Made by a program: the position numbers and the translations under genes
IMG/VR virus record: IMGVR_UViG_3300027797_000021
Span: 1 to 64,000 of that record
Source of the DNA: a virus
DNA length: 64,000 nucleotides
Reading direction: 5' to 3' (one strand)
Shown: in pieces, positions 1,784 through 63,608 of the stretch
How positions within the stretch are numbered: position 1 is the stretch's first letter
How the letters are laid out: each line of letters begins with the position of its first letter
Notes under the pieces: model-generated
The model's input: only the letters and a program-made list of their open reading frames with translations
Databases searched by the model: none
Told to the model about the DNA's origin: nothing

Positions 1784-2104
1784 TTATTTACCTTGTTGAG
1801 ATTCTTTAATTAACTGATATCTTTCGCCAGTCTCTTTTGAGACAATCGAAAAGCCGTAAGAAGCTGCAGCTTCTATGATCTCAGTTAGTTTATCTTTATC
1901 TTCCAAGGAAACATCATTTAAGGGCAAGGTAATTCCAGCATAGACGTCTATGTTTTCAAAATTACCAATATTAATCTTTCTATTTACTCCACATATAAAT
2001 ACTGGATTAGTTGAAATAGATATTTCTGAACTCAAAATATTCACCACCTGGTCTATGGGAGAGTCAATCGACTGCTCCATTGCTGTTTTTGTTATCTTAG
2101 GCAT
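1784..2104 (-). CDS. Hypothetical protein
   Basis: ORF track 1784..2128; likely start MPKITK overlapping the upstream stop. Confidence 0.65.
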   Translation of the reverse strand: MPKITKTAMEQSIDSPIDQVVNILSSEISISTNPVFICGVNRKINIGNFENIDVYAGITLPLNDVSLEDKDKLTEIIEAAASYGFSIVSKETGERYQLIKESQQGK

Positions 2105-2882: not shown

Positions 2883-2888
2883 ACGTAC

Positions 2889-2897
2889 ATTATAGCA
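2889..2897 (-). promoter_or_regulatory. Extended -10 promoter TGCTATAAT; leaderless transcript of dNMP kinase
   Basis: TATAAT lies 6 nt before the ATG and no Shine-Dalgarno is present. Confidence 0.65.
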
Positions 2898-2898
2898 C

Positions 2899-3333
2899 TT
2901 AGAGTTTACTAATGAGCTCTTTTCTTATCTCTAATCCATTTAAAAATGCGTTAGCTAGAGCGTCAGGCTCCCATACAAAAGATCTTTTGACCTGCACTAC
3001 CCTGAAATTAAATTCATCTCTTATTTCTTCAATGGTCATTAGTAGTGGTATCAGTGCGTCGTTCTTGCACTTCCACCTACCGTTGACCTGATTTGCCACA
3101 ACGGCAGAGTCCGTATATATTATCGGATCCACCAAATCTGCCATTGAACATATCAATAGTCCGGCTATTACGGCCTCGTACTCTGCCTCGTTGTTAGTCC
3201 TAGGACCTAGTCCTCTAGCGAACTGTGCAATCTTTTTTCTGTTCTTATATACCACAGCAGAACAAGCTGCTTCACCAAACTTTTTTTGCCCTTGTCCCCT
3301 AGATGCGCCATCGCAAAATACTTCTATGTTCAT
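2899..3333 (-). CDS. rnhA: Ribonuclease HI
   Basis: CDGASRG, TNNEAEYEA, YTDS, DALAN catalytic motifs. Confidence 0.92.
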   Translation of the reverse strand: MNIEVFCDGASRGQGQKKFGEAACSAVVYKNRKKIAQFARGLGPRTNNEAEYEAVIAGLLICSMADLVDPIIYTDSAVVANQVNGRWKCKNDALIPLLMTIEEIRDEFNFRVVQVKRSFVWEPDALANAFLNGLEIRKELISKL

Positions 3334-3369
3334 GATATTAAACACCAATCTTTTATTGATAATACTTAC

Positions 3370-18325: not shown

Positions 18326-18727
18326 TTAATCCTTTTTGAATTCGGTAAATGTTTTGTCGCCTACGCCAAAGTATTCTCTAGCAAGACCAGATGCTATTAT
18401 ATCGTCATTGAGACATTCTCCAACGTTATTCCAAACTTTTCCAAGGATTCTGCCATACTTTTCATTCTTGTCAAGAATTGTTTCAATTTTAATTTTATGA
18501 CCAGCCTTAGTTAACCATTGATCTGTAAATTCTTTAGCGGCTAAACCCATCTTTTTTTCTTCAAGATTAGATGTTCTGCTTTCGGGTGTATTTACACCAT
18601 ATAGCCTAATGCTTTTTGGGCCAAACTTAACTTCAAATCCCAAATCAACAATAACTTTGAGAGTATCACCGTCGACCACCTTAACGACTTCTGCGTTATA
18701 AAGGTATACATTAAATTTATCTGACAT
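18326..18727 (-). CDS. Thermonuclease (staphylococcal nuclease family), no signal peptide
   Basis: VVDGDT, IRLYGVNTPE, KYGRILG, LN..I..GLA. Confidence 0.92.
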   Translation of the reverse strand: MSDKFNVYLYNAEVVKVVDGDTLKVIVDLGFEVKFGPKSIRLYGVNTPESRTSNLEEKKMGLAAKEFTDQWLTKAGHKIKIETILDKNEKYGRILGKVWNNVGECLNDDIIASGLAREYFGVGDKTFTEFKKD

Positions 18728-47482: not shown

Positions 47483-48652
47483 TTAATAAGTTGTCGATCC
47501 CATTATAACAGAATTTATACTAACAGTTCCAGCTGATATATACTTTTTAATGCCTTGTAACGAAAAATCTTGTAGTGGCAGCTCTTTTCCATCGGCGGTA
47601 ATGCTAGATACAATTGTATTTCTTATATAATCAGAAGATCTGTTAATTTGGTTTTCAATTTGGGTCAAGGACATGGTATCCCCTATGGTTAGTGAATTTA
47701 AATACCTCTTAACGAATAATGATGCTTGATTTGCAATGCCGGAAGCCAAGGTCGCAGATACACCCATGGGGATTCTAATGGTAGCTGCAACTGAAACTGT
47801 AACTTTTTCTGCTATTCTAACATTGAATTTAACACCTACTGGCTTGACTGCGTTAACTGCTAATAAAATATTTTGAGGAAGATTACCTAATCCACTACTT
47901 GTTTCTGGGACTACTACAATATCGCAAGATCCTATTCCATAAGAGCCTTCTCTAATTCTAACATCTCTTACGCCCCTCACTCCTAAGGCAGCAAACCTTA
48001 CTGATTCTGCACTCCCCACTGCCTTTGACTTAATCGACGCAATTATTCTTCTTCTAAAATTAGAATCAGATTCTGAATTTATATTAGAATATACTTCTTT
48101 TGGATTATTACAAAATATGATTACTCCAGCTGGGGAAAAGAAATTGTGCTTTGTCAAAGAATTAACTGGAGCTACGTACGCATTGTCCGAGAAATTTGGT
48201 TCTACCCTACCGTAGGCTCTGGTTGAACCTGTTGGAATTACTACATCACCAGCTAGTTTAAAGCCATATTGTTTTGATATAAAATTTGACACGTCATTAT
48301 AAACCAGTACATCTTTTGGAATAGTTATAGCCGAGCTATGAGCTTTATTTATGAAGAATTCTATATTGAAGGACTGTCTATCTTGAGAAGCGTAATCTGT
48401 TATACTCTTTCTTGTTATCCCATAAAGATCGCCAATCAGATCTAGATTCCTACCAGAGGCACTAGATAGGTCCCCTTGCGTTATGTTGAACCTTAGTGCT
48501 TCGTAAAGATCTGATATTTCAGAACTAAAAGCTTCCGCAAAAGCTCTAGCAATGGAACCTGGATAGACTGCCGATATTGCTGCGTCTTTTTGTAAAGAAT
48601 TCAATATACTTACTAATATATCTGATTTACTTTTAATACCATAAACGGACAT
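47483..48652 (-). CDS. Baseplate J-like (gp6) wedge protein
   Basis: PGSIARAF, ASGRNLDLIG, ESDSNFRRRI, GVRDV, KPVGV. Confidence 0.9.
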   Translation of the reverse strand: MSVYGIKSKSDILVSILNSLQKDAAISAVYPGSIARAFAEAFSSEISDLYEALRFNITQGDLSSASGRNLDLIGDLYGITRKSITDYASQDRQSFNIEFFINKAHSSAITIPKDVLVYNDVSNFISKQYGFKLAGDVVIPTGSTRAYGRVEPNFSDNAYVAPVNSLTKHNFFSPAGVIIFCNNPKEVYSNINSESDSNFRRRIIASIKSKAVGSAESVRFAALGVRGVRDVRIREGSYGIGSCDIVVVPETSSGLGNLPQNILLAVNAVKPVGVKFNVRIAEKVTVSVAATIRIPMGVSATLASGIANQASLFVKRYLNSLTIGDTMSLTQIENQINRSSDYIRNTIVSSITADGKELPLQDFSLQGIKKYISAGTVSINSVIMGSTTY

Positions 48653-48655
48653 TTA

Positions 48656-49036
48656 TTAATCTCCTAGATTTTGACTTATTGATAACATAATGGGTTCGTC
48701 TATATCGGATACTATGTGAATATCAAACTTAATAGTATCCCTGCTGGTTGGAACAGCGGTAATCTTAATGTTGCGTCCCTTGAAAAGGCCTTCTTTTTGA
48801 AGCCCAGCCATAATGAGAGCTTTACCAAATTCTGCTGTCTCTTTTGTCTGTGGCAGTCCGTAGAGTCTGGATAAATCTATTCCGAGTTGTGGATATATAT
48901 AGAAATCTCCAGGCTCTGTCATTAGCCTTAGGTAGATTTGCTGGATATCTTCATGCAAAGAGGATGGAGCCAATCCGAGATCCCTTTTTCCATCGATAAC
49001 AAAATCTCCATCTAAGGTAAAATATAGGTCACTCAT
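48656..49036 (-). CDS. Baseplate wedge gp25/GpW-like protein
   Basis: DL....GD, Q.I.LRL.TEPGDF..YPQLG.DL. Confidence 0.8.
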   Translation of the reverse strand: MSDLYFTLDGDFVIDGKRDLGLAPSSLHEDIQQIYLRLMTEPGDFYIYPQLGIDLSRLYGLPQTKETAEFGKALIMAGLQKEGLFKGRNIKITAVPTSRDTIKFDIHIVSDIDEPIMLSISQNLGD

Positions 49037-49673
49037 TTACTGCCTCTAATGCTAACTGGTGTGCCTGCTCGAAGGATATTCCCTCTTTCATAAGACTTAT
49101 CATATATACGATATGCTCTTTGGAATAATCTGATTGATATATTTCCAGTAAACCTATTTGCTCATTTGTCAATCCATCTATACTATATTCTGATTGATAA
49201 TTTTGCTTTAATTGGTCGACTACTGGAGCAAATCCATACTCACCAGTTATAGTAATGGGCTTTTGCTTTTCCTCCTGGTCATATTTCTTAGCTATATCTA
49301 AATAATAGCTAACGCCATTCTGGGCAGAATGTATCGATTTAGTATTTATTTTCACTAAAGTTGGTTCAATATAGGACGAGGCTGCATAGTTAAAATTGTA
49401 GCTATTCCACCTAAGGCCATCTTCTTTCGTATGCATTCTGACGGAGTCGCCAAAAAAGGATATTGACTTTGATCTTGCGCTAATAATTATTCCTATACCG
49501 GGAGCAGCAAATATTTCTATATCCCCTTCGTCATTTAACCTAATAAAACTAGATAAGTCGGGGTGCGTTAGTCCAACTTCTCTATCGGAAAATTCTTTTC
49601 TTTTTTTCATTTCAGAAGATACAGGTAGAGCTGGATCTTGGTAATTAATATTATTCATTGACCGTCTGCTCAT
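49029..49673 (-). CDS. Baseplate spike-associated protein (beta-rich)
   Basis: GLTHP..SSFIRLNDEGDIEI; lies between the OB-fold spike gene and gp25. Confidence 0.55.
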   Translation of the reverse strand: MSRRSMNNINYQDPALPVSSEMKKRKEFSDREVGLTHPDLSSFIRLNDEGDIEIFAAPGIGIIISARSKSISFFGDSVRMHTKEDGLRWNSYNFNYAASSYIEPTLVKINTKSIHSAQNGVSYYLDIAKKYDQEEKQKPITITGEYGFAPVVDQLKQNYQSEYSIDGLTNEQIGLLEIYQSDYSKEHIVYMISLMKEGISFEQAHQLALEAVNE

Positions 49674-50041
49674 TAGTGGACCATAAACCTTGGTATTCCG
49701 GTGTTTACCCTGTATTGATAGGCTCTATTATATCCAGAATTTGTATCGTCATAATAGTTTATTACATAAGGCTTTGCTTCATTATTATCTCTGAAACCTA
49801 TTAGACACCTAGAGCCTGGTACCGGAGCAACAATCTGGACTCCCCTAACACTGGGGCATACTACGTCTTTAACTATATTTCCTATGTTTTCTGAATGATG
49901 ATCTTCCAATACTACAACTGCAGTGTTGTTACTATTATTGTAGGACATGATTACTCCAGGCCTTGATCTTGACCTTTGCATCTGGGATAGATCAATTTGG
50001 TCTTGTATTTTCTTATCAAATTTTGGATAATTGGCTGGCAT
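49673..50041 (-). CDS. Baseplate spike N-terminal OB-fold (gp5/gpV-like)
   Basis: GVIMSYN....TAVV, P.PGSRCLIGF.....PYVI. Confidence 0.7.
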   Translation of the reverse strand: MPANYPKFDKKIQDQIDLSQMQRSRSRPGVIMSYNNSNNTAVVVLEDHHSENIGNIVKDVVCPSVRGVQIVAPVPGSRCLIGFRDNNEAKPYVINYYDDTNSGYNRAYQYRVNTGIPRFMVH

Positions 50042-50072: not shown

Positions 50073-52331
50073 TTAATCATTTACTAAATATTCTCCATTT
50101 AGCCATCTATCGATGTATGTGGCAGAATTCTTGCCTTGTGTACCAGCATCCTTGGCGTATACGTCTTTAACCCATTGTTTCAATGCTGCTTCAGTGCCTC
50201 CACCATTTACGTAAACTTCTACGGCGTCGCTAAACTTAACTGATCCTATCCATCCATATGGGTCTTTGTAATTATCTCCCCACGCTTGGAATTGATATCC
50301 GGTTTCTGGGATCGTTCCTAATTTTGTAAAAAGATAAGATGGAGGACCTCCCGTCCTCAAGGTGTAAAACATATATGCCTGGTTTAATGGTATCCAAACC
50401 CTACGGTCAACTAGTTCTCTGAGTTTTTCAACAGCACCGTTGTGACTGCCTGAATAAAATAATTCTAATTTATATTTTTCATTTAATTTTTCATTATAAT
50501 TATCCACAGTAGGAGGTTGTTCTCCCGGATAAACTGTAGTCCAATTCTTGCTTGCTAGCTGCCATCCTTGCATCTGTTCTTTAGTCGTTGCATCTGTTAA
50601 TTCATAGATTTTTCTACCGTGCGCTGATCCATCGCCAGAATTTCTGCTAATTGTTCCATTGCTATATTCCCTAAATCCACCAGCGCCCATATTAATTTGA
50701 AATATACCCAAAGACATAAAGTCTCCACTTAAAGTTTTCGGATTGCATGAAGTCGGATTACCTCCACCACTTTCCCTAACGGTAATTGCTGCAAAAATTG
50801 CTGCGGTTTCTTTTCCGCATACTGTGGTATGTAGCAGCTCGTAAACTGCGTCTCGCCCTATATTCTCTCCCCAACGACCATAATAATTTGTTGTAAGGTT
50901 AGAACTAGGAGCGACTACTGTCGGAATGGGAATTAAACCTCCATCGATAGGATCAATCATATACCCAGGAGGTATTTCACCATTAGTACCTTCGTCAGGA
51001 ACAATCCCTGCTGGAGTCATTGCTCCGCCGGGGCCAGTATATTTTCCTGCGCGCATTCCACTAAAGCTTAGGTGTATATGATTGGTATGGTTATTGTCTC
51101 TATTGTCGGCAAAAAAGTTTACATATTCTAGCCACGGTCGACTCAGTTTAAATGCGTTGGTACTTGCATCATTGTTGCCACTTTGGTCGACGCCATAACC
51201 AATGGCGTAGTCTTGATGAATGCACAATAGGTCTGGCAGCAAGTACGGAGCTACATCCCCTAAGGTGTCCAGTAGTAATGTTAAAGCACCGTCGTATACG
51301 TCTTTAGTAACTCCGGGACTCAGATTTATTGCATCACTATTAATGTTGCCAACTGAAAATATGTCAACGGCTCTTCCACTAGAGTGATCGCTCAGCCATA
51401 CGTTACCTTCATCATTTGGTTGCTTTGTCAACGCTCTTCCAGCACTGAATTGGCCATTAATAACTACGCCCTTTGAATGTAAAGCCAGTAGCAGCTCTAT
51501 TAAAGCAGGAGCTACATAGGCATTTATGTCCGTTGGATCTTCTAGAATAATATCTTTAGAAATGATCCTCTGTGACTCACCCACTATGGCATCTGGAAAA
51601 TATGTATCTTCTCCGTTAAATACCGTGATTCCATCGGCAGCATATGTATTTGCAATGTCAAATTTAAAACTTGTATCAGTAAAAGTACTAGGATACTTGG
51701 AACGCAATACATCTACTCTTTCTTGATACCATCCTTTTTCTTGTTCCGTCATTTGACTAAAGAGTGCTACATTTCTCATTCCTGCACTCTGGGTTTCGGT
51801 GGATGGTATGTTATCTCCGGTAGATGGATCTGCTCTAGTGCCTGAGGTCTGTGTACCGTAGTTACCAACACTTATCTGCTGCATATTGGCTATTGAACTA
51901 CTAACAAACGATCCACTAAAATTTTTTCCACTTAATGAATTTGCTATAATTCTATTGATTGCAGCTCCTCCAGTTAGTGTACTAGACGCCTCATCCTCTC
52001 GTTGACTTTCAGGATTGTTAACCTTAACATTTGGATTTTCTTGATTGCCCGCTGACGCTATTGATCCGCTACCTGTAATTAATGTATTTAGTGAAGAGGA
52101 TACACTTTTATTCATTGCGGCAACGGCATACTTTGGGCTTCTAAAGAACGCATCACCATTTATCACATCGGATAGTGTTCTCGCGCTCAATGTTTGACCA
52201 ACCATGGGTCTACTTACTGAGGCGCTAGTATTTTTTACTGGCGTTTTTCCACCCGGAAAAAAGTCTGCGTGCAACGAAGTTGCAAATGATGCTGAATCGG
52301 CTAAGGCTGCATTATTAAAACTAAAAGACAT
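50073..52331 (-). CDS. Tail-associated lysin: Zn peptidase (M15-like) plus lytic transglycosylase
   Basis: SDHSSGRAVDI...HTNHIHLSF; AAITVRESGGGNP...SLGIFQINM. Confidence 0.78.
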   Translation of the reverse strand: MSFSFNNAALADSASFATSLHADFFPGGKTPVKNTSASVSRPMVGQTLSARTLSDVINGDAFFRSPKYAVAAMNKSVSSSLNTLITGSGSIASAGNQENPNVKVNNPESQREDEASSTLTGGAAINRIIANSLSGKNFSGSFVSSSIANMQQISVGNYGTQTSGTRADPSTGDNIPSTETQSAGMRNVALFSQMTEQEKGWYQERVDVLRSKYPSTFTDTSFKFDIANTYAADGITVFNGEDTYFPDAIVGESQRIISKDIILEDPTDINAYVAPALIELLLALHSKGVVINGQFSAGRALTKQPNDEGNVWLSDHSSGRAVDIFSVGNINSDAINLSPGVTKDVYDGALTLLLDTLGDVAPYLLPDLLCIHQDYAIGYGVDQSGNNDASTNAFKLSRPWLEYVNFFADNRDNNHTNHIHLSFSGMRAGKYTGPGGAMTPAGIVPDEGTNGEIPPGYMIDPIDGGLIPIPTVVAPSSNLTTNYYGRWGENIGRDAVYELLHTTVCGKETAAIFAAITVRESGGGNPTSCNPKTLSGDFMSLGIFQINMGAGGFREYSNGTISRNSGDGSAHGRKIYELTDATTKEQMQGWQLASKNWTTVYPGEQPPTVDNYNEKLNEKYKLELFYSGSHNGAVEKLRELVDRRVWIPLNQAYMFYTLRTGGPPSYLFTKLGTIPETGYQFQAWGDNYKDPYGWIGSVKFSDAVEVYVNGGGTEAALKQWVKDVYAKDAGTQGKNSATYIDRWLNGEYLVND

Positions 52332-52340
52332 TTATTACTC

Positions 52341-55300
52341 CTACGTTCCCGGATTCAATGTGACTTGTCTTGGAATTAGTGCAGATTCTTCTGCGCTAAT
52401 AACTGATTGGGACTCCACTTGAAGCTGCTTTGCATAAACTGTTGCAAGATTATTAACAACTAGTTCCCAGTTTAGAGTAACCGGATATCCATCTTCGTAA
52501 TATTCATCCCAGAATATAGTAGGCCAATCATTAGACTTTTCATAAGTTGTTTCTAATACCTTAAAGCAAACTAGATTATTGTAAAATCTATTAAAGTCTT
52601 CTTCCGTCAGTCCATAATTTGCCATTGATTGTGCAGAAAGATCCAATGGTGGATTATATTGAATATCCAAAGTAGCAATTTTTTTCATAATATTGGATCT
52701 TTTTATATAAAGGGGAGATTCCTCGTACACTGAAGCAAAAAACTTTTTACTAACATCATCATCTGTGCCTGTATCTGATACTGTAGGAACAATTATCTTC
52801 CCCTGATTTGCAACGAAACATCCCCTGACAAAATCTTTTGCTTGATTGATGACTGATTCTGGCTGATAGTACCAGACCGTCCCTAGTGCTCTTTTCCCTT
52901 CGGCGCCGTCGAAAGAGTCTTTTGTATAGTTTTCAAATCTATTCTCAGCAGCGCCGGGTTCAAACTGAGCTTCGAATATAACATCATTACTTGAGCTATT
53001 GCTAACTTTCATTCTTAATACAAATACTTTATTAGCTATTTTACTCTGCGTATAAATCTTAGCTCTACCGCCAGGGGTTGAGGTAGATGTTAGATTCGTT
53101 GTATCCCCAAATGGATCGTTAACATCTCCACCTGGTTCACTTGGGATTTCTCCCACTCTCATGGTATTGGTTTCGCCTGTGTTCATTCCATCAAATCTGA
53201 CAGTAAAAGTTGCTCCAGAAATAACGTCCTCGACATCAAATGTGTCGCCGTCTTTAAACTTAGTAACTGTTGCTATTACCTTAAATAGGGATGTTTGCAG
53301 GGCAGTTTTCTCTGGACCAAGTCCGCTAAGACTAAGTACTCGAGCGTGTGTTAGAGCATTTTCGTAATCAGTATATCTGACTAGATCTTTTATTTCAGTT
53401 TCTTGCCATCCAAGACTCTTTAGTAGGTCGTCGCTTCTAATAAAGGCATTGCCTTCAGGCGTTTTTACTTTTGTTCTTGCTCCTAATATTCCTGGCAGTA
53501 AAGCTTTTGTATGGTACCTACCTACTACCATACCTTGATTATATGATAATCCTGCGTCCATTGGTTGACCATTTTTATTTAGATACTGAACATAGCAGCC
53601 ATGCTGATCGAGTACGTTATCCCTCAGCCATGTCCAGCCCTTCCAGGCTAATTGCCCAACGATTGGAACTGCCCTTGCCAAAGATGCTCCCACGACTGCT
53701 ATAACAGTATCTGCCCCCGGCACTTTAGCTTGCCCGGCTCTTGCTATTTCGTCTCGTGCTCTATCCGGAAGGCTTAGCGCAGTTTGATTTGCCATAATAT
53801 CTTTCATCAAAGCTGAGGATCCGTGTGTATACTGAATTCCGCCAATCATCTGTGTACTCAAGGAGTCTGCTAGTGCATCTACGGAAATGTTTCCACCCAT
53901 GTTTATACCAGAGTTCGATGCCATAATATTATCCATGTAGAATCTAGTATCATTTCTTAGATTCTGCATACTGAGCCATGAGTGCAACCATGTTGACATA
54001 AACCATCTGGAGGGATCATTAACTGTAACTAAGGCATTGGGTGTGATGCTGGTAACGTATCCCATCTCTGAAGTGAAGTGATGAACTACTTGCTCTACCT
54101 CAAATATTCCATACATTCTACTATAGACATCAGATAGATACACTAAGTCGTGCGGTCTAATATCTGGATTTCCCACTAAAGTGAGTTCTCCACCATAAAT
54201 ATCCTTAATGGATTCCTTTAGATGGGATAGTGCCACTCTTCTCGCGGACAGTTCATCTGGAGTGCCTTGTAAAGTTTTTGCATATCCCCTAAATGTTTCC
54301 AGGGGGTGCATAAAGGGGTGAAGAACTCCAAGGAATCCAGAACCAACCATATTATCATAATATAATCCGGTCTCAACTGTAGTCTCTGTTTGACGCTCTG
54401 ATGGAGCCCCTTTATCTAATGCAACCGTTACTGGATTTTTTCCATCAGAAACCGCTGTAATAACAGTTGAAACGTTATTTAAATTTTCTTGAATTTGATT
54501 GGATATAATATGAGAAAAAGAACTTAAATAATGTATTCTTTGGAATGGCTGGCGAACCTCTACTACAGGCTCTCCATATTCTCTAGTGAATGGATTGTCA
54601 ACTGCCCTTAACAGCGTTCCTGGTCTTCCGAGTGAATAGTATATTGAATCATTTAATACTTTATTAAGAATATGAGCCTGCTTACTAAAGTTCCCAACCT
54701 CAGAAAGTGCATATCCCATCTGCATCATGCTCAACTTAAACATGCCCAAGAGTGAGCTCAGGCCATCTCCAATGGCTCCAAGTATTGGACCAATATTAGC
54801 GTTGTAGAAATCTGATACGTCTTCATCTATTCCACCAATAAACGTTGAAGAGTTACTTCCCTCTCCTTTTGTCGAAACTAAAAGCTTTAGGAATTTACTA
54901 TTGTCTTTAGCGTATTGGCTATATGGATTAATGAATGCTTCAAATACTTTATCGATTGGCTTAAAGGACCACTGTCCATCTTCGCCTCCTCCGCCAGATG
55001 TAATTGCACCACGTTTTCTGTCTGGCTTAAGCACTAGCCAAGCTCTACCATATCCAGAGCTCCAAAGCTTTTGCCTGAATAACCCAACCATCAATAGGAA
55101 TAGTTGCTTAGGTGTCTTAACTGCTTCTGATAAATTTATTGCAGTTTCTGGATTATCTTTATTCTCAATTGAAATTGAAAGCGCGTTATTAATTACCTGT
55201 GTTTCAAAGAAATTTGACCTGATACCATCTAATGATTTAGAGATAACACTATTGAAATACTGTATAATTCCAGCGTCGCCTTGAACTCCTTTACTCTGAT

Positions 55301-58300
55301 AGTCTATATAGTTATTTGTAATAAACTCCACAGCATCTTTTTTATCTTGAGGTGTAGATTTAGTGGAACCGTAATTGCTTCCATATTGAGTTTCTGAATT
55401 AAAGAAATCGGAACCCAATAGAATGGCTATTTCGTCTACTCCTGTACCTTCAGTAGCAGAAAGACCAGGAATGGTTACATTGGATTGTGAGAAATTTTGA
55501 AATGAGGTAACATTGTTTCCTCCTAGTATTCTTGAGAATTCTGGAGGAAATTGATCTGTTGAATCAGCGTCCATACCATATGTCTTAGTAAATATAGCCT
55601 TAACGCTATCATAAGTATGATATCCAAATCTGAACTGATCCCATATGTCACTTGCCTGATCAAGTGTTCTTCCGTTTCCAGCTATTACCGAAACATTAGG
55701 GTCATAATTCTCATCATAAAAAGATCTAGCTTCAACTGATGTGCTATCCATTGGCGAATAGACGGCGGCAAAGCCGACTCGCCCACTGCCAGAATCCTCA
55801 TCTCCTGTCGTATAAAGCTCAGCATCGAGGCGTTCATATAGCTTACCCTTATCTAGGGCATTGTAATCCTTGTCTATAATTGCCTGAAAGTATCCTGGAT
55901 TATCTCCGCTTTTAAGAATATTTCCACCATACTCATAATTCATAGTAGTGACTCTAGCGTTCTGCGCAGAATACTCTTCTAGTGAGCTATCCTTGTCGGC
56001 ATCAATCTTAAAGTAATCTCCTACGCTAGGTTGACCAAAGTCTCCAGGACCAAAAACTTTTGGTGAAGCAATAAACTTATTACTGTCGCCATTGTCATTT
56101 ATGGCGTATGCTCCAAAGCCAATAATATATGCAGTTGCGTCATTGGTGTCGTAAAATCTTTTTGCTGGGGCTGCTTCTGCTGCAACGACTCCCAATGGGG
56201 TACCATCTGGTACGAAAGCAAAGAGGCAATCAACATCTCGTGGGAAGGTGCTTAAACCGCTTGCTTTTTCCAATTGAGCGTATGTGCTATTTGCTATGGT
56301 CATATCTAAAGTATTCGAATCATAGCTTTGCAAATTGGCCCAAGCGGGTAAAGATTCTGAGAGTTCACCAATTAAATTAGCTCCTTCATTGAACTGAGAT
56401 ACAAATGTTCCTAAGTACCATGCAGCGTCGGGCGACACAACTGCTGCAACTTCGTCATCATTATCCTCTCCCCACATAAAGTACGCCGGGGCACAAACTA
56501 CTGCTCTTCCCGTTAACGGGCTGAATACAAGTACTCTTCTTTTTTTGTAATCGCTTGCTGTTCCATATAGATCTTCATTGGGGAAGTAGGTATCTTTAAA
56601 TTTACTCAGTGATGCGTCGGGGATAGGGCCATCGGACGTGGTGGGCAAGTAGGGCCATTTCATTGCTATGTAGAATTGTTCTTCCGTTGCAGTTGCTGGA
56701 CAGCCCCATTCTTCATATGTTATTTGTTGATTTAATTCATATTCAAAACTGAAATCATCCGAATTCTCTTCCTTTTGAGCAGTAGTGCTATTGATCATTG
56801 TAAAGCCCACTAAGGGATAGTTTTCTTTCTGTAAAGAAGAGACAGACGGCAGCGGCATTCTTGCGACAGTAGTTTGATCTAGGTTCAAAAACTCCACGCC
56901 AGAAGAACTAATAGAATCCATAAGACTCGTAAAGCCTAAGGGCCTATCTAGCTCCAATATGCCAGAACTAGGCCTTACAGTAATCTCTGTCTCTTGTAGA
57001 AAACGCGATTCTAGTTGAAGAAAATATATTAAGTTTACTGCCAGCGTAGCTCCACCCTCTGTGTAGCTGGACGAATTTATGGCTTCCTTATATCTCTCCA
57101 TCATATCTGCTTGATCTTGCTCAAGATCATCAAGATCATTAGTATCAACTTCGTTTCTTGCTGAAAGAAATTCAGCGAATTCAGAAAATAAACCACCATC
57201 TCTAACTTCGTAAGATTTGCTATCTAAAACGGTAGTTTCAGATATCGTATAGTACGGGTACTTAAATCTTACTGGAAGATTATCTAGTTGTCTATGATCA
57301 TAACTAGGAGTTAAGGGTGCATAAGTTGTGGGATTAGTGCTCACTGGTAAGTGAAAGCCCATTTTAACTTTACCAGAACTAATAGGGAGTTTAGAGATAA
57401 TGATTTCATTATCATCTTCATCTTTACTAGTTCTTATTTTTGCTAGATTTGAATTAAAATTTAATAACTTTCCTGTTAGACTTTTTGTTGGAGCATATTC
57501 TCCAGTGGAAGATGCTTGGTCTTTTGCTAGTCCAGCCATGACATCACTAAGCTCTTCAGATCTCTTAAATGCCTCATAGTCTGCTAATGAGTTAGATTGT
57601 TTATTGACATTGTTCATAATTGTCTGAATATCGTCATTAGGACTTCTATCTTTTGGATAGCCTGGAAGATTTAATTCATTAGCTTTCCTTACGCTTGGAA
57701 AGCCCGTAGTCACTGGAACTACACCGGAAGTATATAACCAATGCGGCTTTCCATAAAAAATAGTAGATCTATCCTCAAAAGGTCTAACTGCTACTATATA
57801 ATTTGGCAGTAGCCTTGCGCACATTTGGAAAAGATCCCATACGGTTCGCATGTATGTTTGTGCTCGGAATGACACTTCGTCAAATCCACTTAAGTCATCA
57901 TCAGCGTTGGGGGCAATTATTCCCATTGTCCTAAATACATTAGTGCCACCCCTACCTCTCAGTAGGCCCATGAGAGCTCCACCTCCAGCTATTCCTGCTA
58001 TAACATTAACTCCCGGTATAGCAGCAATGCCTGCTGTTAGTCCACCTAGTAGGACATTCTTGACAGCCCCTGCCCGTCCTTCTGCTGAAATGAGTTTATT
58101 ACCCTCAACATAGGAATCTATGGCAGCACTAGCAGAAACTGACTCATTTTGAGCTTCTACTATTAATCTGTTCCATGATCTATCTGTTCCATTTTCTAGA
58201 TATGCTTGTCCAGCTAAAGTTTTTCCATCACCCTCAACCAAAGACGCTGCAGTCAGCCATCCATCGTCTAGATCTCCACCTAAGAATTGTGCGAATCCGG

Positions 58301-61300
58301 TTCCATTTCCAGGATAAATATTTCTTTTATATAATTCAAGATCTACTTCTGAAGAAAAATTAGACATTAGTTGACCCATACTGGTCATCACTCCTCCATT
58401 GCCAAAAAATGCGTTCTCATTTCTTGAAAATACATTTGTTGATAACTTAAAAGTTGCGGCGTTAGCTGCTCCACCAATATCTCCCTGCCCAACGTTAGAG
58501 TAGGCATTGGTGACAACGTTTCTCAATCCATCGGCTCTTTGTCTTTCAACTTCGTTGAGTGGCTCATATAGTATTGTACCAAAATGTCTAATGCCAAATC
58601 TATTTTCAGAAAAAACCGTTCCCAGAGTTGCCCTAGCTATTGCTTCGCGAACCCTAGATGCTCCCATACTTAAGAGTCTAACCATTAAGTCTCTTGGCTC
58701 CGAAAGGTACATGCCAGTATCTACTCCGCCATCAATTTTTCCAGAGTCACCTTTTTTATTTGTTGAGTTAACAACAGCGCCAAGTTCAATTGCGTCAGAT
58801 TGGGCAGTGATAGTAACTATTTCCCCTTCTTCAACATTTGTTATAACTCCATTGAATAGCGTTTGCAGTGAGTTTGGATTCGAGCCATACCCACCTCTTA
58901 AGTGAAGTCTAACTCCTGGCTTTAATCTTATATTATTAATGTCAACAACATAATCATTTCTCATTCCGGAAATAATATTTTTAGCTATATTTAAAGTTCT
59001 ATCTAAGATGGCGCTGATTCCATCGACAGCACTTAGGGGATCCTTATTCAGGTCATCATTACCTGCGTTAAATATATCTGTAGACGGGCGCGTTGTTAAC
59101 TTGGAGTACATGTTTGAAACTCTCAATATTAATGTGTCTCCTAATAAATCTTCAGATGATACAACTGAAAAATCTATAACAGACTGAAGTCCATAGAAAT
59201 TATCGAATAATTTGACACCTGCAAACATTCCACCTTCATCTATAAGCCATAGCATGTAAGTGGGGAATGCTCTAATCATGCGCCCAGATATATCTCTATA
59301 TTGGACATCGTTAAGCATTTTTTCCATATGGTTATTGAACGAGCCATCGTAAGCTTTTTGATATGCGGATAACGGCTGAGCTCCACTAATTCCAGTTAAA
59401 GAATTGGTACAACCAATATCTGGAGTTTGCATATCTTTCGTATAATTACTTTCAAACTTTTTTGCGCCATCAGATTCAACTCTAACATTAGTTCCTTCTA
59501 TTGTAAGGTAAAATCTTCCGGTGTCTTTATTGATGTAGCCGAAATGCGTTCCTAGAGCACTATACATTATTGCTGGGATTTCATTAGCGTCTTGTTCTTC
59601 GGGATTAGTCAGTGGAAGTAAGTTAATAATTTTATGGAATTCAACCTCATCTGGATCAAAGCTAACAAATTCCTCTTCTGCTAAATGGGAACTGGCTAAT
59701 ACTTGTGCAATAATATTTTCCGTTTGCGAACCAGTAATGCCAACATTTCCTACGACAAATGGTGCTCCATTAAACTCTTCAAAAATTTGGCTTCCCTCTG
59801 ATGACTGTGACGCTAAAAATATATAATCAGTTAAAAGTGCAATCTTTGAATAATTGTTAATAGTATTATTGTCTGGTTCCGATGTAACTTGTTGAAACAA
59901 TGCAATAAAGTTATGAATGCTGATTCCGGACTCATTTACATAGTCTATCATTTCATTGATTAGATCTTGATTTGTTTGTCTTCTAGATTCAATCGCAGCA
60001 ACATTAGCAGCATCCGTGAATGAGTATCTTCTCATAAAGTCTTTAATGCTATTTTTTACAGATTCAATTTTTCGTTCGATAGCTTCAGCCCCTCTAGGGC
60101 CATCAGTATTTCTTGCCCAATGATCTGAACTATCAAAAGTAAAAGCTTTAGCTAAGTCTACTTGAGTAGTATTGTTATTGATAATGTCACGATCAAACAT
60201 TTCGAAACTTCTAAAATAGAAATCTGGATCTAGGTTGCCAACAATATCTCCATTCTTATCTTTTACACCCAATGGAAGGTCAGGATAAGCGTTGAATGAG
60301 CCCCACAATTGCTTCATTCTTAAGAAAGGATTTCTCTTCGTGCCAAAATGGTCAATTAAGTCTTTTTGCTGCTTTGAAGAAATTTTCTCTCTCTGCTGCT
60401 GGAATATATCAAAGTCAACTAGGCTCAGTTGGACTGAGTAGACATGTGGGTAATTCGGTATTGTATCGACCTTATAGTTAAGTGGCAATACATATTTAAT
60501 GCCAGATAACGCAGTTATAATATTTTTAATTCCTAAGAATCCTATAACCCCAGTAGAGTGTTCTAGTCTAGCTAGACCATTAACATGGTCAAATACTGAT
60601 CTAATTTTTAATAATTCTTTTTCACCAAAGACAGTCATGGACACATTAATGTAACTATCTTTTCCGCCAATGTATTGATAGCTAGGCTCATCTTGCATTT
60701 GGATTTGTAGCTTTGCTAAATTATTACCCATGGACACACTAACGCCGTTAACTATGGCACTTTTTGGATCTAGATCCACACGATTCATTGGAACTTCCCA
60801 CTCATTAAAGTGGTAATCCCCATCTTTCAGCCTAGTTGCCTCCATCATATTCTTAACAAAGCCATCCGTAAAGAATCTTTCGTACATATTTACTTGAAAT
60901 AATTCGGTTACCTGCTGTGTAACTTTTTCTCTATCTGGTTCTACCCCGGCACTTTTAGTCTGTCTAACAATTTCTTCGTCAATCAATATATCTAATACGG
61001 ATCCAGATTCGCCGGCCTTAAGGTCAAATAGATACTTTATCTGATTCAAGCTTTTATCTGATGTTAGCACTCCGTATAAGAAATAAGACTCTTCAGTGCT
61101 AGAGTATTGATAAAAATATCCGGCTACCTCAACTCTTTCATCTGGCCCCAAATAATCCAAGAGCCACTTCTGTTGTTCTTGGTCTAGCCTAGTTGCATTA
61201 GCAATAACAAAAGATTTTGCTAAATAAAGATAAACTTTTTTCTTGGTGTCAGTAGTGGAGATGCCTGCGGTCAGGCTGTCAACTGCCTGGCTTATAAACG

Positions 61301-63608
61301 TTTTCATGCCCTTTGGAAAGTTTGATTCTAAAGACATAGATTTAATTCCATCTATATCTTTTATCAAAGGACTGTTAACAGAGCGCTCTATTCCGAATGA
61401 ATTAAGAAGCCTATCCCAAAGTCCAGACGCTGTATCATTTAATATTTTTTCTTGATCACTTCTAAATGAGGTATTGTCCGGTAGAAATATTTTTGTTTGA
61501 GTTTCTGCTGGAGTAAATAAAGTTATGTTACTTCCATCTCTCCATTGAGAAATTATGTTAGTTTCCAAGACGTCATTCCTAAAAGAGTTTAGATAAGTAA
61601 GTTGCACGTCTTCTGGCAGTACATTTATGTCAAAAATTTCAGATTGAGCTTCAAGTCCGGCAGCCGTTAATGCACCTTGATCGACCGCTGTATCAACAAC
61701 CTTATTGTCAGAAGTTTTTATTAAGAAACTTTCATTGACATACCTATGCATTTCTCCGGCTGCTTTACCCATATACTGACGATACTTACCCCAGTGTATT
61801 GCCTGGTTGAAATCTTTTAACATTGGCAAGAAAGGCTTGTGATTAAAGTGGACCATTTCTAAATCGATAACAAGAGCAAATGGATAATTGGGAGCTGTTG
61901 CAATAGACATATTTGAAAGTCCAACGGCAGTAATGCCATGTACCGAATTTAGATAATCATTCTTAATCGGCAGGATCGGAGAATATTTGAATGCAGCTAC
62001 TAGGCCTCTAAGCGATGACAAGAATTTATCTATTTTTACTTCGTCATCTCCGCCATTTTTAAAGTCAATCTTAAAACTTTCATCTAGATTTAGCGTTGCC
62101 GCATCGGAGATTGATAAGCCCCATATCTCTTCATAATTGGGAAAGAACAACCTCATAGAAATAGTAGTTTCTTTATAGCCTGCGTTAAATTTAGGTGTGT
62201 TTTTCTGTCTGATTGCTCCACCTGTTAATGATCCTGTTTTAAAATTAGAATTTACGCTAATTGAAACTGGAGGAACATAAAAGTTAGCAGCTCCCAGCCT
62301 GAGATGAAATATATCTGGTTTTCTGGGTGGAATATTTTCTCTAAATGGGAAATCTACAAGTGCTTGTTTAATTCTTTGTGCGGTATTTTCTACTCTAAAA
62401 GCTAAGGTGAATATTGCTTCGCCACCTTTAGTAATTCCAAAAGCTTTTTCTAGTGAATCCATTGCGTCAGCTTCATTGTTCAATGTATCTTCTGCGCCAC
62501 CACCCTTGCCATTATTCGAGTAGTCACCGACCGCGGCCAGTGCATCAAATACAAATGTAACTAAACTTGGGAAATAAAAATTAATTATAGAAAATGATAT
62601 TGGATCTTTTTGAAGATTATAAACTACTTCACTTAATATTGTTAGCCATGGCGTATCTATTTCAGGACTAGTATATTCATCCATTGACCTTTTGGCTGTT
62701 GCAACGCTCTGCAGTCTTTTCTTTGCAAAGTTGCTAATTTCATAAGCAAATGAGGCCAGCTGTAAAATTCCGCTTGACTCTAACCTAGCGTAGATGGATT
62801 TAGAAGTTCCAGTATCTAATTCTATCGGACCAGAGGCGCCTAAACCAAAAATTCTACTGGTTGCGCTTTTTGTCTTCTCATCAGCCTGAAACTCGGAGCC
62901 CCTGTTTGTCGAGAAGTATTTTTTTATTACTCCATCAACATCATTAGTTTGATTTATTGGATCACTGCCGTACACATTATGTAAAAATATTCTAAAGTCT
63001 GTTAGGTAATCCTTGGTGACTTCATCTTCTGTATTATTATCTTCTAGCTCTTTATCTTTTTCTGTTGTATTAATTTTTTCTTCTAGCTCAAGAGCAACTA
63101 GATCTTCATCAGTTATTCCGTCTTCACCTATGTAACTTTTCCAGATATTAAGCCTGTCAATAATAATTGACTTAGCTGTTTCCATTGTGATTTTTTTTGC
63201 ACTATAGCTGATTAAGTAGTAATTAAAAAACCAATTTAATGCTTCATCTGCTGATGGATTATCTAGAGTGGCAAATCCAAAATTAAATGCCCATGTCTGA
63301 AATGTCTCAGTTACAAATAGTAAATTTGAATCTTTATCTAAAATTTCGCAGTTTGCCAAACGGAGTGTTGACAAATAGGCGTATTTATCGCCTGTATTTT
63401 TAAAATCATTATCACTTGCAAAAATAAGGGCCCTTCCACCTTGATTACTATCGTAACCAATTATTTCTGGGTAAGCTCCTGGTAGAGTCAGGAATGCATG
63501 CATCTGCCTTTCATTGAAGCCCCTAATATCTTCAATTGTTGAATTAATACGATTTTCATTTTCGGATAGATACTGTAAGACTATTTTTGCTATTGGATTA
63601 ATTGCCAT
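52341..63608 (-). CDS. 3755-aa baseplate hub mega-protein (tube-like domains, gp27/VgrG-like hub, RlpA-like DPBB, C-terminal staphylococcal nuclease)
   Basis: LKPG.R.HLR.GYG...LFNGVIT; GELTLVGNPDIRPHD...EVEQVVHHF..MGYVTSI; YIAMKWPY..RVLV..P.TGRAVV; DGDT..VRFDGMNTGE..R.LG..LNWELV..NLA. Confidence 0.8.
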   Translation of the reverse strand: MAINPIAKIVLQYLSENENRINSTIEDIRGFNERQMHAFLTLPGAYPEIIGYDSNQGGRALIFASDNDFKNTGDKYAYLSTLRLANCEILDKDSNLLFVTETFQTWAFNFGFATLDNPSADEALNWFFNYYLISYSAKKITMETAKSIIIDRLNIWKSYIGEDGITDEDLVALELEEKINTTEKDKELEDNNTEDEVTKDYLTDFRIFLHNVYGSDPINQTNDVDGVIKKYFSTNRGSEFQADEKTKSATSRIFGLGASGPIELDTGTSKSIYARLESSGILQLASFAYEISNFAKKRLQSVATAKRSMDEYTSPEIDTPWLTILSEVVYNLQKDPISFSIINFYFPSLVTFVFDALAAVGDYSNNGKGGGAEDTLNNEADAMDSLEKAFGITKGGEAIFTLAFRVENTAQRIKQALVDFPFRENIPPRKPDIFHLRLGAANFYVPPVSISVNSNFKTGSLTGGAIRQKNTPKFNAGYKETTISMRLFFPNYEEIWGLSISDAATLNLDESFKIDFKNGGDDEVKIDKFLSSLRGLVAAFKYSPILPIKNDYLNSVHGITAVGLSNMSIATAPNYPFALVIDLEMVHFNHKPFLPMLKDFNQAIHWGKYRQYMGKAAGEMHRYVNESFLIKTSDNKVVDTAVDQGALTAAGLEAQSEIFDINVLPEDVQLTYLNSFRNDVLETNIISQWRDGSNITLFTPAETQTKIFLPDNTSFRSDQEKILNDTASGLWDRLLNSFGIERSVNSPLIKDIDGIKSMSLESNFPKGMKTFISQAVDSLTAGISTTDTKKKVYLYLAKSFVIANATRLDQEQQKWLLDYLGPDERVEVAGYFYQYSSTEESYFLYGVLTSDKSLNQIKYLFDLKAGESGSVLDILIDEEIVRQTKSAGVEPDREKVTQQVTELFQVNMYERFFTDGFVKNMMEATRLKDGDYHFNEWEVPMNRVDLDPKSAIVNGVSVSMGNNLAKLQIQMQDEPSYQYIGGKDSYINVSMTVFGEKELLKIRSVFDHVNGLARLEHSTGVIGFLGIKNIITALSGIKYVLPLNYKVDTIPNYPHVYSVQLSLVDFDIFQQQREKISSKQQKDLIDHFGTKRNPFLRMKQLWGSFNAYPDLPLGVKDKNGDIVGNLDPDFYFRSFEMFDRDIINNNTTQVDLAKAFTFDSSDHWARNTDGPRGAEAIERKIESVKNSIKDFMRRYSFTDAANVAAIESRRQTNQDLINEMIDYVNESGISIHNFIALFQQVTSEPDNNTINNYSKIALLTDYIFLASQSSEGSQIFEEFNGAPFVVGNVGITGSQTENIIAQVLASSHLAEEEFVSFDPDEVEFHKIINLLPLTNPEEQDANEIPAIMYSALGTHFGYINKDTGRFYLTIEGTNVRVESDGAKKFESNYTKDMQTPDIGCTNSLTGISGAQPLSAYQKAYDGSFNNHMEKMLNDVQYRDISGRMIRAFPTYMLWLIDEGGMFAGVKLFDNFYGLQSVIDFSVVSSEDLLGDTLILRVSNMYSKLTTRPSTDIFNAGNDDLNKDPLSAVDGISAILDRTLNIAKNIISGMRNDYVVDINNIRLKPGVRLHLRGGYGSNPNSLQTLFNGVITNVEEGEIVTITAQSDAIELGAVVNSTNKKGDSGKIDGGVDTGMYLSEPRDLMVRLLSMGASRVREAIARATLGTVFSENRFGIRHFGTILYEPLNEVERQRADGLRNVVTNAYSNVGQGDIGGAANAATFKLSTNVFSRNENAFFGNGGVMTSMGQLMSNFSSEVDLELYKRNIYPGNGTGFAQFLGGDLDDGWLTAASLVEGDGKTLAGQAYLENGTDRSWNRLIVEAQNESVSASAAIDSYVEGNKLISAEGRAGAVKNVLLGGLTAGIAAIPGVNVIAGIAGGGALMGLLRGRGGTNVFRTMGIIAPNADDDLSGFDEVSFRAQTYMRTVWDLFQMCARLLPNYIVAVRPFEDRSTIFYGKPHWLYTSGVVPVTTGFPSVRKANELNLPGYPKDRSPNDDIQTIMNNVNKQSNSLADYEAFKRSEELSDVMAGLAKDQASSTGEYAPTKSLTGKLLNFNSNLAKIRTSKDEDDNEIIISKLPISSGKVKMGFHLPVSTNPTTYAPLTPSYDHRQLDNLPVRFKYPYYTISETTVLDSKSYEVRDGGLFSEFAEFLSARNEVDTNDLDDLEQDQADMMERYKEAINSSSYTEGGATLAVNLIYFLQLESRFLQETEITVRPSSGILELDRPLGFTSLMDSISSSGVEFLNLDQTTVARMPLPSVSSLQKENYPLVGFTMINSTTAQKEENSDDFSFEYELNQQITYEEWGCPATATEEQFYIAMKWPYLPTTSDGPIPDASLSKFKDTYFPNEDLYGTASDYKKRRVLVFSPLTGRAVVCAPAYFMWGEDNDDEVAAVVSPDAAWYLGTFVSQFNEGANLIGELSESLPAWANLQSYDSNTLDMTIANSTYAQLEKASGLSTFPRDVDCLFAFVPDGTPLGVVAAEAAPAKRFYDTNDATAYIIGFGAYAINDNGDSNKFIASPKVFGPGDFGQPSVGDYFKIDADKDSSLEEYSAQNARVTTMNYEYGGNILKSGDNPGYFQAIIDKDYNALDKGKLYERLDAELYTTGDEDSGSGRVGFAAVYSPMDSTSVEARSFYDENYDPNVSVIAGNGRTLDQASDIWDQFRFGYHTYDSVKAIFTKTYGMDADSTDQFPPEFSRILGGNNVTSFQNFSQSNVTIPGLSATEGTGVDEIAILLGSDFFNSETQYGSNYGSTKSTPQDKKDAVEFITNNYIDYQSKGVQGDAGIIQYFNSVISKSLDGIRSNFFETQVINNALSISIENKDNPETAINLSEAVKTPKQLFLLMVGLFRQKLWSSGYGRAWLVLKPDRKRGAITSGGGGEDGQWSFKPIDKVFEAFINPYSQYAKDNSKFLKLLVSTKGEGSNSSTFIGGIDEDVSDFYNANIGPILGAIGDGLSSLLGMFKLSMMQMGYALSEVGNFSKQAHILNKVLNDSIYYSLGRPGTLLRAVDNPFTREYGEPVVEVRQPFQRIHYLSSFSHIISNQIQENLNNVSTVITAVSDGKNPVTVALDKGAPSERQTETTVETGLYYDNMVGSGFLGVLHPFMHPLETFRGYAKTLQGTPDELSARRVALSHLKESIKDIYGGELTLVGNPDIRPHDLVYLSDVYSRMYGIFEVEQVVHHFTSEMGYVTSITPNALVTVNDPSRWFMSTWLHSWLSMQNLRNDTRFYMDNIMASNSGINMGGNISVDALADSLSTQMIGGIQYTHGSSALMKDIMANQTALSLPDRARDEIARAGQAKVPGADTVIAVVGASLARAVPIVGQLAWKGWTWLRDNVLDQHGCYVQYLNKNGQPMDAGLSYNQGMVVGRYHTKALLPGILGARTKVKTPEGNAFIRSDDLLKSLGWQETEIKDLVRYTDYENALTHARVLSLSGLGPEKTALQTSLFKVIATVTKFKDGDTFDVEDVISGATFTVRFDGMNTGETNTMRVGEIPSEPGGDVNDPFGDTTNLTSTSTPGGRAKIYTQSKIANKVFVLRMKVSNSSSNDVIFEAQFEPGAAENRFENYTKDSFDGAEGKRALGTVWYYQPESVINQAKDFVRGCFVANQGKIIVPTVSDTGTDDDVSKKFFASVYEESPLYIKRSNIMKKIATLDIQYNPPLDLSAQSMANYGLTEEDFNRFYNNLVCFKVLETTYEKSNDWPTIFWDEYYEDGYPVTLNWELVVNNLATVYAKQLQVESQSVISAEESALIPRQVTLNPGT

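Follow-up and report, generated by a model that had tools for sequence, protein, structure and literature searches.

The 64,000-nucleotide stretch analysed here (the window) covers positions 1 to 64,000 of the IMG/VR virus record IMGVR_UViG_3300027797_000021, which is 91.6 kb long. It contains a minus-strand open reading frame (ORF) at 52341..63608 that, according to the ORF list and its translation, runs uninterrupted for 3,755 amino acids (aa) plus a stop codon. The last ~320 residues of the encoded protein are, as judged from alignments and a modelled structure, a real but divergent staphylococcal-type nuclease (SNase) domain, and the protein as a whole is predicted to be the central baseplate hub of the phage, of the T4 gp27 / P2 gpD type and in a 'hyperplastic' form. 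The function predicted for the domain is most likely that of a virion-borne Ca2+-dependent nuclease. The stretch to which a first-pass annotation had drawn attention, 52341-54250, is the 3' end of this ORF. The source is an uncultured contractile-tailed freshwater phage of ca. 200 kb: CheckV puts the completeness of the record at 43%, which for 91.6 kb gives a genome of about that size, and the contractile tail follows from the surrounding genes (sheath, tube-like and baseplate).

The SNase-type identity rests on four independent tests, namely the match of an AlphaFold model, a profile built from 65 homologues, the register of an hhalign comparison, and the conservation of the active site. Relatives were gathered from IMG/VR and JGI metagenomes, and 65 non-redundant C-termini were aligned (alignment A3). 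The AlphaFold2 (AF2) model of the C-terminus made with these 65 sequences has a pLDDT of 76.7 and a pTM of 0.73, with most of the SNase core at pLDDT 83-94. In the model a beta-barrel is followed by one helix and another strand, then by a long block of helices and a closing helix and strand. When this model was searched with Foldseek against the PDB, the top 50 matches were nearly all staphylococcal nuclease (rank 49 being SND1, an SN-domain protein), with a probability of 1.00 and a TM score to the target of ~0.5. VIA, an all-against-all structure aligner that does not depend on Foldseek, places model positions 40-332 on residues 7-118 of the SNase chain 1sta_A with a Z score of 10.2, a root-mean-square deviation of 3.4 Å over 112 of 137 residues, and 23% identity. 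The SN domains of Tudor-SN score Z 10.2-10.6, the SN-like scaffolds of extended Tudor domains 5.7-9.4, and the first unrelated oligonucleotide/oligosaccharide-binding (OB) fold only 4.6. The first-pass annotation had read an SNase out of short motifs in these residues, and the OB-fold match agrees with it.

Searches with sequence profiles point the same way. A search of 1.84 billion representative proteins with the A3 profile gave 104 matches at E ≤1e-3. The majority are the C-terminal ends of proteins of 2,300-3,900 aa, or short proteins and fragments covering parts of the domain. The remainder are small proteins with library-wide E values of 1.9e-6 to 6e-4; ten of them were checked and every one matches PF00565, with nine exceeding the Pfam gathering score. 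The phage also encodes a stand-alone thermonuclease (18326..18727, minus strand), which matches PF00565 at E 3.6e-13 and sits among the nucleotide-metabolism genes of the phage; it is the sole PF00565 match in the 91.6-kb record. Compared with this enzyme in hhalign, A3 scores E 3.4e-5 and aligns DGDT, R..NT.E and the first helix in register. The stand-alone enzyme is real, as is the parallel that had been drawn between its motifs and those of the hub. The matches in BFVD are thermonuclease-like viral proteins, headed at E 5.3e-24 by a UniProt entry with the name 'Baseplate hub protein [uncultured Caudovirales phage]'. The named neighbours in the ESM Atlas are SNase clusters, and several fragments carry the JGI pipeline label 'endonuclease YncB (thermonuclease family)'. 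Neither a tblastn search for the C-terminus in 50,697 phage records nor a hidden Markov model (HMM) of 14 relatives run on PDB sequences produced a match.

All the motifs quoted in the first-pass annotation are present, in a single minus-strand frame and at the coordinates given for them. The first part of the SNase core covers residues 3440-3581 (52866..53291), as delimited by AF2, Foldseek, VIA, hhalign and the conservation counts. It holds the strands of the beta-barrel, the DGDT motif, R3471..N3476-T3477-x-E3479, helix 1 (PGGRAKIY) and the strand with R3573; the corresponding sequence motifs are ATVTKFKDGDTF (residues 3446-3457, window 53238-53273), VRFDGMNTGE (residues 3470-3479), GGRAKIY (residues 3513-3519) and KRALGTVWY (residues 3572-3580). 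Between strand 5 and helix 2 of the SNase fold lies a helical insertion domain (residues 3582-3711, 52476..52865), which AF2 models confidently as helices (model positions 184-292, pLDDT 73-94). Its presence had been foreseen, at a length of ~135 aa; the gap is in fact 131 aa. The fold is then taken up again by helix 2 and the next strand (residues 3712-3733, 52410..52475), an element that the VIA alignment spans and that contains LNWELVVNNLATVY (residues 3712-3725, window 52434-52475). The insert terminates in the motif WPxxxWDEYYxDG, and W3695, P3696, W3700 and G3707 in it are invariant among the 121 relatives on which all residue counts given here are based. Just after it, N3713 is invariant as well, and E3715, L3716 and A3722 are 98-99% conserved. 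A fold search with the 131-aa insert returned only helical look-alikes in VIA (Z ≤4.3) and ESM Atlas scores of at most 0.85.

Set beside S. aureus nuclease A, the hub domain thus has the same OB-fold barrel with helices 1 and 2, and DGDT, R-x4-(N/D)-T-x-E, the R87 strand and N..LV...LA.V follow one another in the same order and spacing. It differs in having Asn in place of the Ca2+ ligand D40, in the 131-aa helical domain before helix 2, in the third helix, which is not recovered, and in a set of family-specific invariants (D3461, N3556, Y3561 and WDEYY). Unlike the S. aureus enzyme it is also tethered to a structural protein of 3,400 aa.

The active-site positions are mostly kept among the relatives. 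The equivalents of D19 and D21 are D3453 (Asp in 98%) and D3455 (Asp in 99%), that of R35 is R3471 (Arg in 98%), that of T41 is T3477 (Thr in 57%, Ala in 41%), that of E43 is E3479 (Glu in 82%), and that of R87 is R3573 (Arg in 82%, Lys in 17%). The R-x4-(N/D)-T-x-E spacing is identical to that of R35...D40-T41-x-E43 in SNase. The first-pass annotation had proposed the conservation of D19, D21, R35, E43 and R87 as a check on the domain; these equivalents are retained in ~83% of the homologues, and the check fails in a subfamily of ~17% that is without E43. An acidic residue (Asp or Glu) occupies position 3473 in 93% of the relatives and D3461 is invariant, neither position belonging to the canonical SNase site. 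The C-terminal domain is under purifying selection, with a ratio of non-synonymous to synonymous substitution rates (dN/dS) of 0.08-0.16, and the hub half has a ratio of 0.02-0.07. Among 57 relatives the hub half (53409-54641) is 61-98% identical and the nuclease-like domain (52344-53408) 30-93%; by these comparisons, the nuclease cargo evolves several times faster than the hub scaffold.

The identification of the protein as a hub is based on transitive homology to gp147 of Bacillus phage 0305phi8-36 and on gene order, not on fold. The whole protein matches phrog_20474, the family of gp147, at E 2.9e-118, and BLASTP against gp147 gives five collinear blocks, among them one at residues 1428-1679 (E 3e-23) and another at 3017-3363 (E 2e-19). 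The latter is the C-terminal half of the hub scaffold (53520..54560, minus strand), homologous to gp147 residues 1191-1567, and spans the hub motif, a hydrophobic helix and a Trp-rich motif. The placing of gp147 in the T4 gp27 / P2 gpD family goes back to an HMM-HMM comparison by Hardies, Thomas and Serwer (2007, Virol J 4:97, PMC2147016), who termed the protein a 'hyperplastic homologue' of the hub. In the present protein the gpD/gp27-type motif occupies residues 3118-3195 (54024..54257, minus strand) and consists of GELTLVGNPDIRPHD (residues 3140-3154, window 54147-54191), EVEQVVHHF (residues 3170-3178) and GYVTSI (residues 3183-3188, window 54045-54062). It matches phrog_8809 (E 2.9e-13) and, over residues 3118-3189, phrog_52 (E 6.3e-4), which is the P2 gpD family (E 1.3e-187). 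Comparison of the hub-half alignment (A4) with P2 gpD in hhalign gives the same register at a non-significant level (E 0.11, probability 0.5%). A Pfam search of the whole protein matched no hub model, and PDB sequences searched with an HMM of the hub half yielded nothing but a chance match to RimP (E 0.71). The order of genes around the hub (tube and giant ORFs, hub, spike and wedge genes) is as in 0305phi8-36. On these grounds, the gp27-type hub named in the first-pass annotation stands.

The label 'evolved VgrG'-like that had been given to the protein does not stand, other than as an analogy. As in evolved VgrG proteins and T4 gp27-gp5, a gp27-type hub at a contractile tip bears an enzymatic domain, for which action on the target cell is predicted here. 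The T4 tip enzyme is a lysozyme on gp5. Unlike those systems, the present hub has no fused gp5-type OB/beta-helix spike: the spike homologue is encoded by a separate 122-aa gpV-like gene, and what lies between the hub motif and the SNase is a hydrophobic helix and a Trp-rich motif, with no beta-helix, so that the enzyme follows the hydrophobic helix. The record is moreover that of a phage, with capsid, sheath and baseplate genes, and not a type VI secretion system (T6SS) locus.

The hydrophobic, transmembrane-like helix covers residues 3298-3321 (53646..53717, minus strand), and the segment quoted in the first-pass annotation residues 3301-3328 (53625-53708); its Kyte-Doolittle peak over 19 residues is 1.77. 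It is followed directly by the Trp-rich motif WKGWTW ... HGCYVQYLNKNGQPMDAGLS ... GRYH (residues 3322-3377, 53478..53645, minus strand), which forms invariant columns in alignment A4 and is the last element in common with gp147 before the cargo, the alignment reaching gp147 residue 1567. The helix is variable in sequence across the relatives and its hydrophobicity is kept: in 108 of 114 relatives a stretch with a Kyte-Doolittle value ≥1.4 stands right before W(K/R)GWxW, which upholds the hydrophobic segment as a property of the family. A second hydrophobic segment, Gly/Ala-rich and glycine-zipper-like, is found in the middle of the hub (residues 1846-1883, 57960..58073, minus strand), and with a peak of 1.87 it is the stronger of the two. 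Between this segment and the C-terminal half, at window 54561-57740 (residues ~1957-3017), there are ~1,060 residues that have no equivalent in gp147 and separate blocks that are adjacent there (1118-1169, and 1191 onward); no Pfam or PHROG match was found for them.

What comes after the common helix and Trp-rich motif differs widely within the larger hub family. In gp147 it is an NlpC/P60 domain (1633-1741) and a peptidase M23 domain (1796-1880). A search seeded with the gp147 scaffold recovered relatives with M23, NlpC/P60, 3D, amidases, glucosaminidase, SLT and lysozymes. Two relatives of ~3,100 aa carry PF00565; in the one that was scanned, P0305 (3,105 aa), the domain is at the extreme C-terminus (residues 2986-3094, E 8.3e-19) and the scaffold is collinear with that of the 3,755-aa hub. 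The SNase of P0305 and the split domain are related at the profile level only (hhalign E 1.5e-4). Endonuclease_NS-type domains occur in four further relatives, of ~3,000 aa; the two that were scanned, P0345 (residues 799-929) and P0351 (residues 793-922), have an internal Endonuclea_NS_2 domain (PF13930/PF01223) in place of an SNase. Taken together, the SNase of P0305 and the Endonuclease_NS domains of P0345 and P0351 mean that two unrelated non-specific nucleases of the secreted type have been recruited to the hub family, and the variety of hydrolases and nucleases on the relatives indicates that the hub termini are a docking place for exchangeable enzymes. In more distant hub lineages, of the kind of P0388, P0389 and P0390, Pfam gave no SNase match for these three relatives; hmmalign placed canonical DGDT / R..GINTxE motifs in several of the lineages, and their R..G(I/V)(N/D)(T/A)PE motifs are more canonical than those of the present clade.

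Within the present clade the picture is one of a fixed feature. The SNase domain is kept in all 120 relatives among the matches listed and ends at most 25 residues from their C-termini; the apparent '48% coverage' matches are due to a loop insertion of 100-200 aa after the E43 equivalent. The possibility that the domain is a sporadic add-on in this clade is ruled out by the same count, 120 of 120 among the matches listed. The idea of an effector cargo, put forward in the first-pass annotation, accordingly holds for the wider family, whose slot takes exchangeable enzymes, and not in the form of an occasional add-on in this clade. In some cases the module is a separate protein: P0226, P0227, P0232 and P0239 (475-500 aa, with a Met start, on contigs of up to 104 kb) consist of a Gly/Ala-rich hydrophobic segment, the Trp-rich motif and an SNase-like module. 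Other split points are found at residues ~2779-2848 (P0153, P0154) and ~3014 (L088). Judged by such sequences, the mega-protein seems to have been fused from units that can also exist as separate genes.

It is worth setting these findings against the published record. The fusion of an SNase to hubs of this family is on record from 2007, when Hardies, Thomas and Serwer (PMC2147016) reported a staphylococcal-nuclease domain at the N-terminus of the BtI1 hub homologue and suggested that such hub-borne domains sit where T4 has its tail lysozyme. The architecture, of which the first-pass annotation knew no characterised phage example, is therefore not unrecorded. A literature search for hub or tail proteins with a thermonuclease gave this paper as the only match, and a survey of jumbo phages (PMC7824862) mentions neither SNase nor gp27. 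Like gp147 and its prophage-like homologues BtI1 and BwK1, the present protein is a giant 'hyperplastic' hub of the gp27/gpD type that comes after giant genes of the virion or tape-measure type and before gpV-, gpW- and gpJ-like genes; with the gp147 lineage it also has in common the five collinear homology blocks and the placing of enzymatic domains on the termini. Unlike gp147, which has 1,903 aa and an NlpC/P60 and M23 end, it is twice as long, with ~1,060 extra residues (1957-3017). Whereas the SNase of BtI1 is N-terminal, the present one is C-terminal, Pfam-negative and split by the 131-aa helical insert, and whereas the 0305phi8-36 lineage comes from Bacillus, the present hub comes from freshwater metagenomes. 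The metagenomic hubs of the P0305 and P0320 type (3,105 and 3,165 aa) have the same scaffold and an SNase at the extreme C-terminus, but theirs is canonical, uninterrupted and ~350 residues further from the Trp-rich motif. The present domain stands out by its position at the C-terminus, after a hydrophobic helix, and by its split form, which Pfam does not see. What is new is the subfamily without catalytic residues, the relatives with Endonuclease_NS, the canonical C-terminal SNase of P0305, the selection figures and the separately encoded modules.

As to where such a nuclease would act, the preferred reading, to which a probability of about 0.4 is given, is that it works outside the cytoplasm, on DNA or RNA that is extracellular or associated with the envelope. 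By analogy with T4 gp27, the SNase domain would ride on the virion, in three copies if the hub is trimeric. Firing of the tail would expose it, the hydrophobic helix would anchor it in the envelope, and an active, Ca2+-dependent and sugar-non-specific nuclease would then cut extracellular or envelope-associated nucleic acid in the way that tail lysins act on the wall. Once in the low-Ca2+ cytoplasm, the phage genome would be spared by the Ca2+ dependence of the enzyme. Enzymes of the SNase and Endonuclease_NS types are typically secreted, metal-dependent, non-specific nucleases. Action outside the cytoplasm is favoured because of this, because the neighbouring types of cargo act on the envelope, and because Ca2+ dependence would spare the phage genome.

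Several observations weigh against this reading. Pfam gives no match for the whole protein or for residues 3401-3755, PF00565 included, even at E 10, and only 2 of the 65 relatives have a weak PF00565 match (best E 0.004). The third SNase helix is absent from the AF2 model, and its last ~25 residues are of low confidence. At the position of the Ca2+ ligand D40 the hub has N3476 (Asn in 69% of the relatives, Asp in 12%, Ile in 16%); the Pfam-positive stand-alone SNase of the phage likewise has Asn there, as do several distant hub lineages whose R..GINTPE motifs are very canonical. In the subfamily that makes up ~17% of the relatives (P0071, P0075, P0080-P0105 and others), the residues equivalent to window 53172-53250 read DGDE ... 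RLEGIIASS ... (E/D)K(S/A)LG: the equivalents of D40, T41 and E43 are lost together, R87 is replaced by Lys and T22 by Glu. Canonical catalysis is then dispensable in at least some members, and judging from these replacements the domain of the subfamily may be inactive, or may have a re-modelled metal site that uses other acidic residues. The AF2 model of hub residues 2990-3400 is unusable (pLDDT 37.6, pTM 0.19), so that the gp27 fold of the hub is putative. Finally, a non-specific nuclease beside the exit of the DNA would endanger the phage genome.

The same subfamily is among the grounds for a different and less probable reading, in which the domain is a non-catalytic structural or binding module that uses the SNase-type OB fold as a scaffold, as in Tudor-SN and extended Tudor domains, and might serve as a hub plug, as a hold on the tape measure or the DNA end, or in the binding of surface polymers. 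The ~17% of relatives without the E43, D40 and T41 equivalents still keep the domain, among the top structural neighbours are, at Z 7-9.4, halves of extended Tudor domains that are SN-like and non-catalytic, the domain has acquired a large helical insert, and the most strongly conserved block is non-catalytic (WPxxxWDEYYxDG together with D3461, G3552, N3556 and Y3561, all outside the canonical SNase active site). However, 83% of the relatives keep the pattern D-D-R-(N/D)-(T/A/S)-E-R despite an overall identity of 30-40%, a retention that is difficult to account for unless the active site is under selection. The distant hub lineages have an even more canonical R..G(I/V)(N/D)(T/A)PE, one relative has a full Pfam-grade SNase in the same place, and others have an unrelated nuclease instead.

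Conservation of the catalytic residues also speaks for an injected effector, a reading that is unlikely and ranks slightly below the scaffold. Here the hub C-terminus would follow the tape measure through the envelope, with the hydrophobic helix helping to form or cross a channel, and the SNase would cut host DNA or RNA in the cytoplasm before gene expression begins, for host shut-off or nucleotide supply. Hydrophobic segments such as the two in this hub (1846-1883 and 3298-3321) are a typical trait of membrane-active tail proteins that are ejected, and the separately called module of ~475-500 aa suggests an autonomous, releasable unit. A comparison can be made with pb2 of phage T5, a membrane-active ejected tail protein with a terminal enzyme: there too hydrophobic segments and a terminal hydrolytic domain occur on a protein that is housed in the tail and released at infection (release being a proposal for the present hub), although pb2 is a tape measure with a muralytic domain and not a hub with a nuclease. 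Canonical SNases, on the other hand, are secreted enzymes that need Ca2+ at ca. millimolar concentration, and free Ca2+ is very scarce inside bacterial cells. The incoming phage genome would also be exposed to any non-specific nuclease in the cytoplasm, and the phage already has a stand-alone SNase.

It is improbable that the C-terminal module is cleaved off during tail assembly and acts in the infected cell, as an assembly chaperone or a second intracellular nuclease. Maturation cleavage of hub and spike proteins is known, T4 gp5 being the example, and separately encoded versions of the module exist; but relatives of the gp147 type hold wall hydrolases in the same slot, enzymes that could sensibly act only at the virion tip, and the hydrophobic helix argues for an encounter with a membrane at entry. 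That the SNase resemblance is due to chance or to by-eye motif hunting, as the missing Pfam match of the protein and the 14-relative HMM without a PDB match might suggest, is effectively ruled out by VIA (Z 10.2 against a background of 4.6) and by the library-wide profile search, which retrieved canonical SNases at E values down to 1.9e-6, with hhalign (E 3.4e-5) and the SNase clusters of the ESM Atlas also speaking against it.

The genes around the hub are those of a contractile tail, and the 91.6-kb record also encodes capsid, sheath and baseplate genes. Downstream of the hub ORF come a 752-aa ORF, the gpV-like spike gene, a gp25/W-like gene and a gpJ-like gene. The spike gene (122 aa, 49673..50041, minus strand) matches gp148 of 0305phi8-36, a 'P2 gpV-like protein', at BLASTP E 7e-7. 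The gp25/gpW-like baseplate wedge gene (48656-49036, minus strand) matches phrog_975 and phrog_120, and the gpJ-like wedge gene (47483-48652, minus strand) matches phrog_6 at E 2.5e-34. The 752-aa ORF, which lies between the hub and the gpV-like gene at window 50073-52331, is without a Pfam or PHROG match and has no equivalent at the corresponding position in 0305phi8-36.

Upstream of the hub are the sheath, two tube-like genes and two giant ORFs of 2,201 and 1,611 aa. The giant ORFs are directly upstream, beyond the end of the window (1,611 aa, L107:1074-5909, record 64074-68909; 2,201 aa, L107:5909-12514, record 68909-75514), and neither has a PHROG match at E 1e-3 or better. By position, one of the two should be the tape measure (compare gp145 and gp146 of 0305phi8-36). 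Two paralogous ORFs that adjoin the sheath gene (L107:14753-15538 and L107:15611-16273) match phrog_9206, 'major head protein', at E 2.9e-42 and 3.5e-51. By their position they are more likely tail-tube proteins, and the PHROG label may mislead.

Phage tail-tip enzymes are known as degraders of the wall or the capsule. More than 240 relatives from freshwater metagenomes keep the SNase domain and related hubs have recruited an unrelated nuclease, which means that the function is likely to be selected and not incidental. Tentatively, and at somewhat less than even odds, nucleases at the tail tip may serve as a general means of entry for a large group of uncultured jumbo myophages, in which the hub presents a non-specific nuclease, or releases it on a membrane-anchoring helix, SNase having been recruited in several placements and Endonuclease_NS independently. 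If this is true, the nuclease would clear nucleic acid that is extracellular or bound to the envelope (DNA of the biofilm matrix or the surface), or would strike the host before gene expression, and would be the nucleic-acid counterpart of tail lysins and depolymerases. If active, it would also be a compact and naturally tethered DNase, with possible use against DNA-rich biofilms. The value of the finding lies in the biology of a tail-tip nuclease and not in the discovery of the fusion, which was mentioned in 2007: a nuclease in the tail-tip slot implies a further step in infection, for example the clearing of extracellular DNA or an attack on host nucleic acid upon contact.

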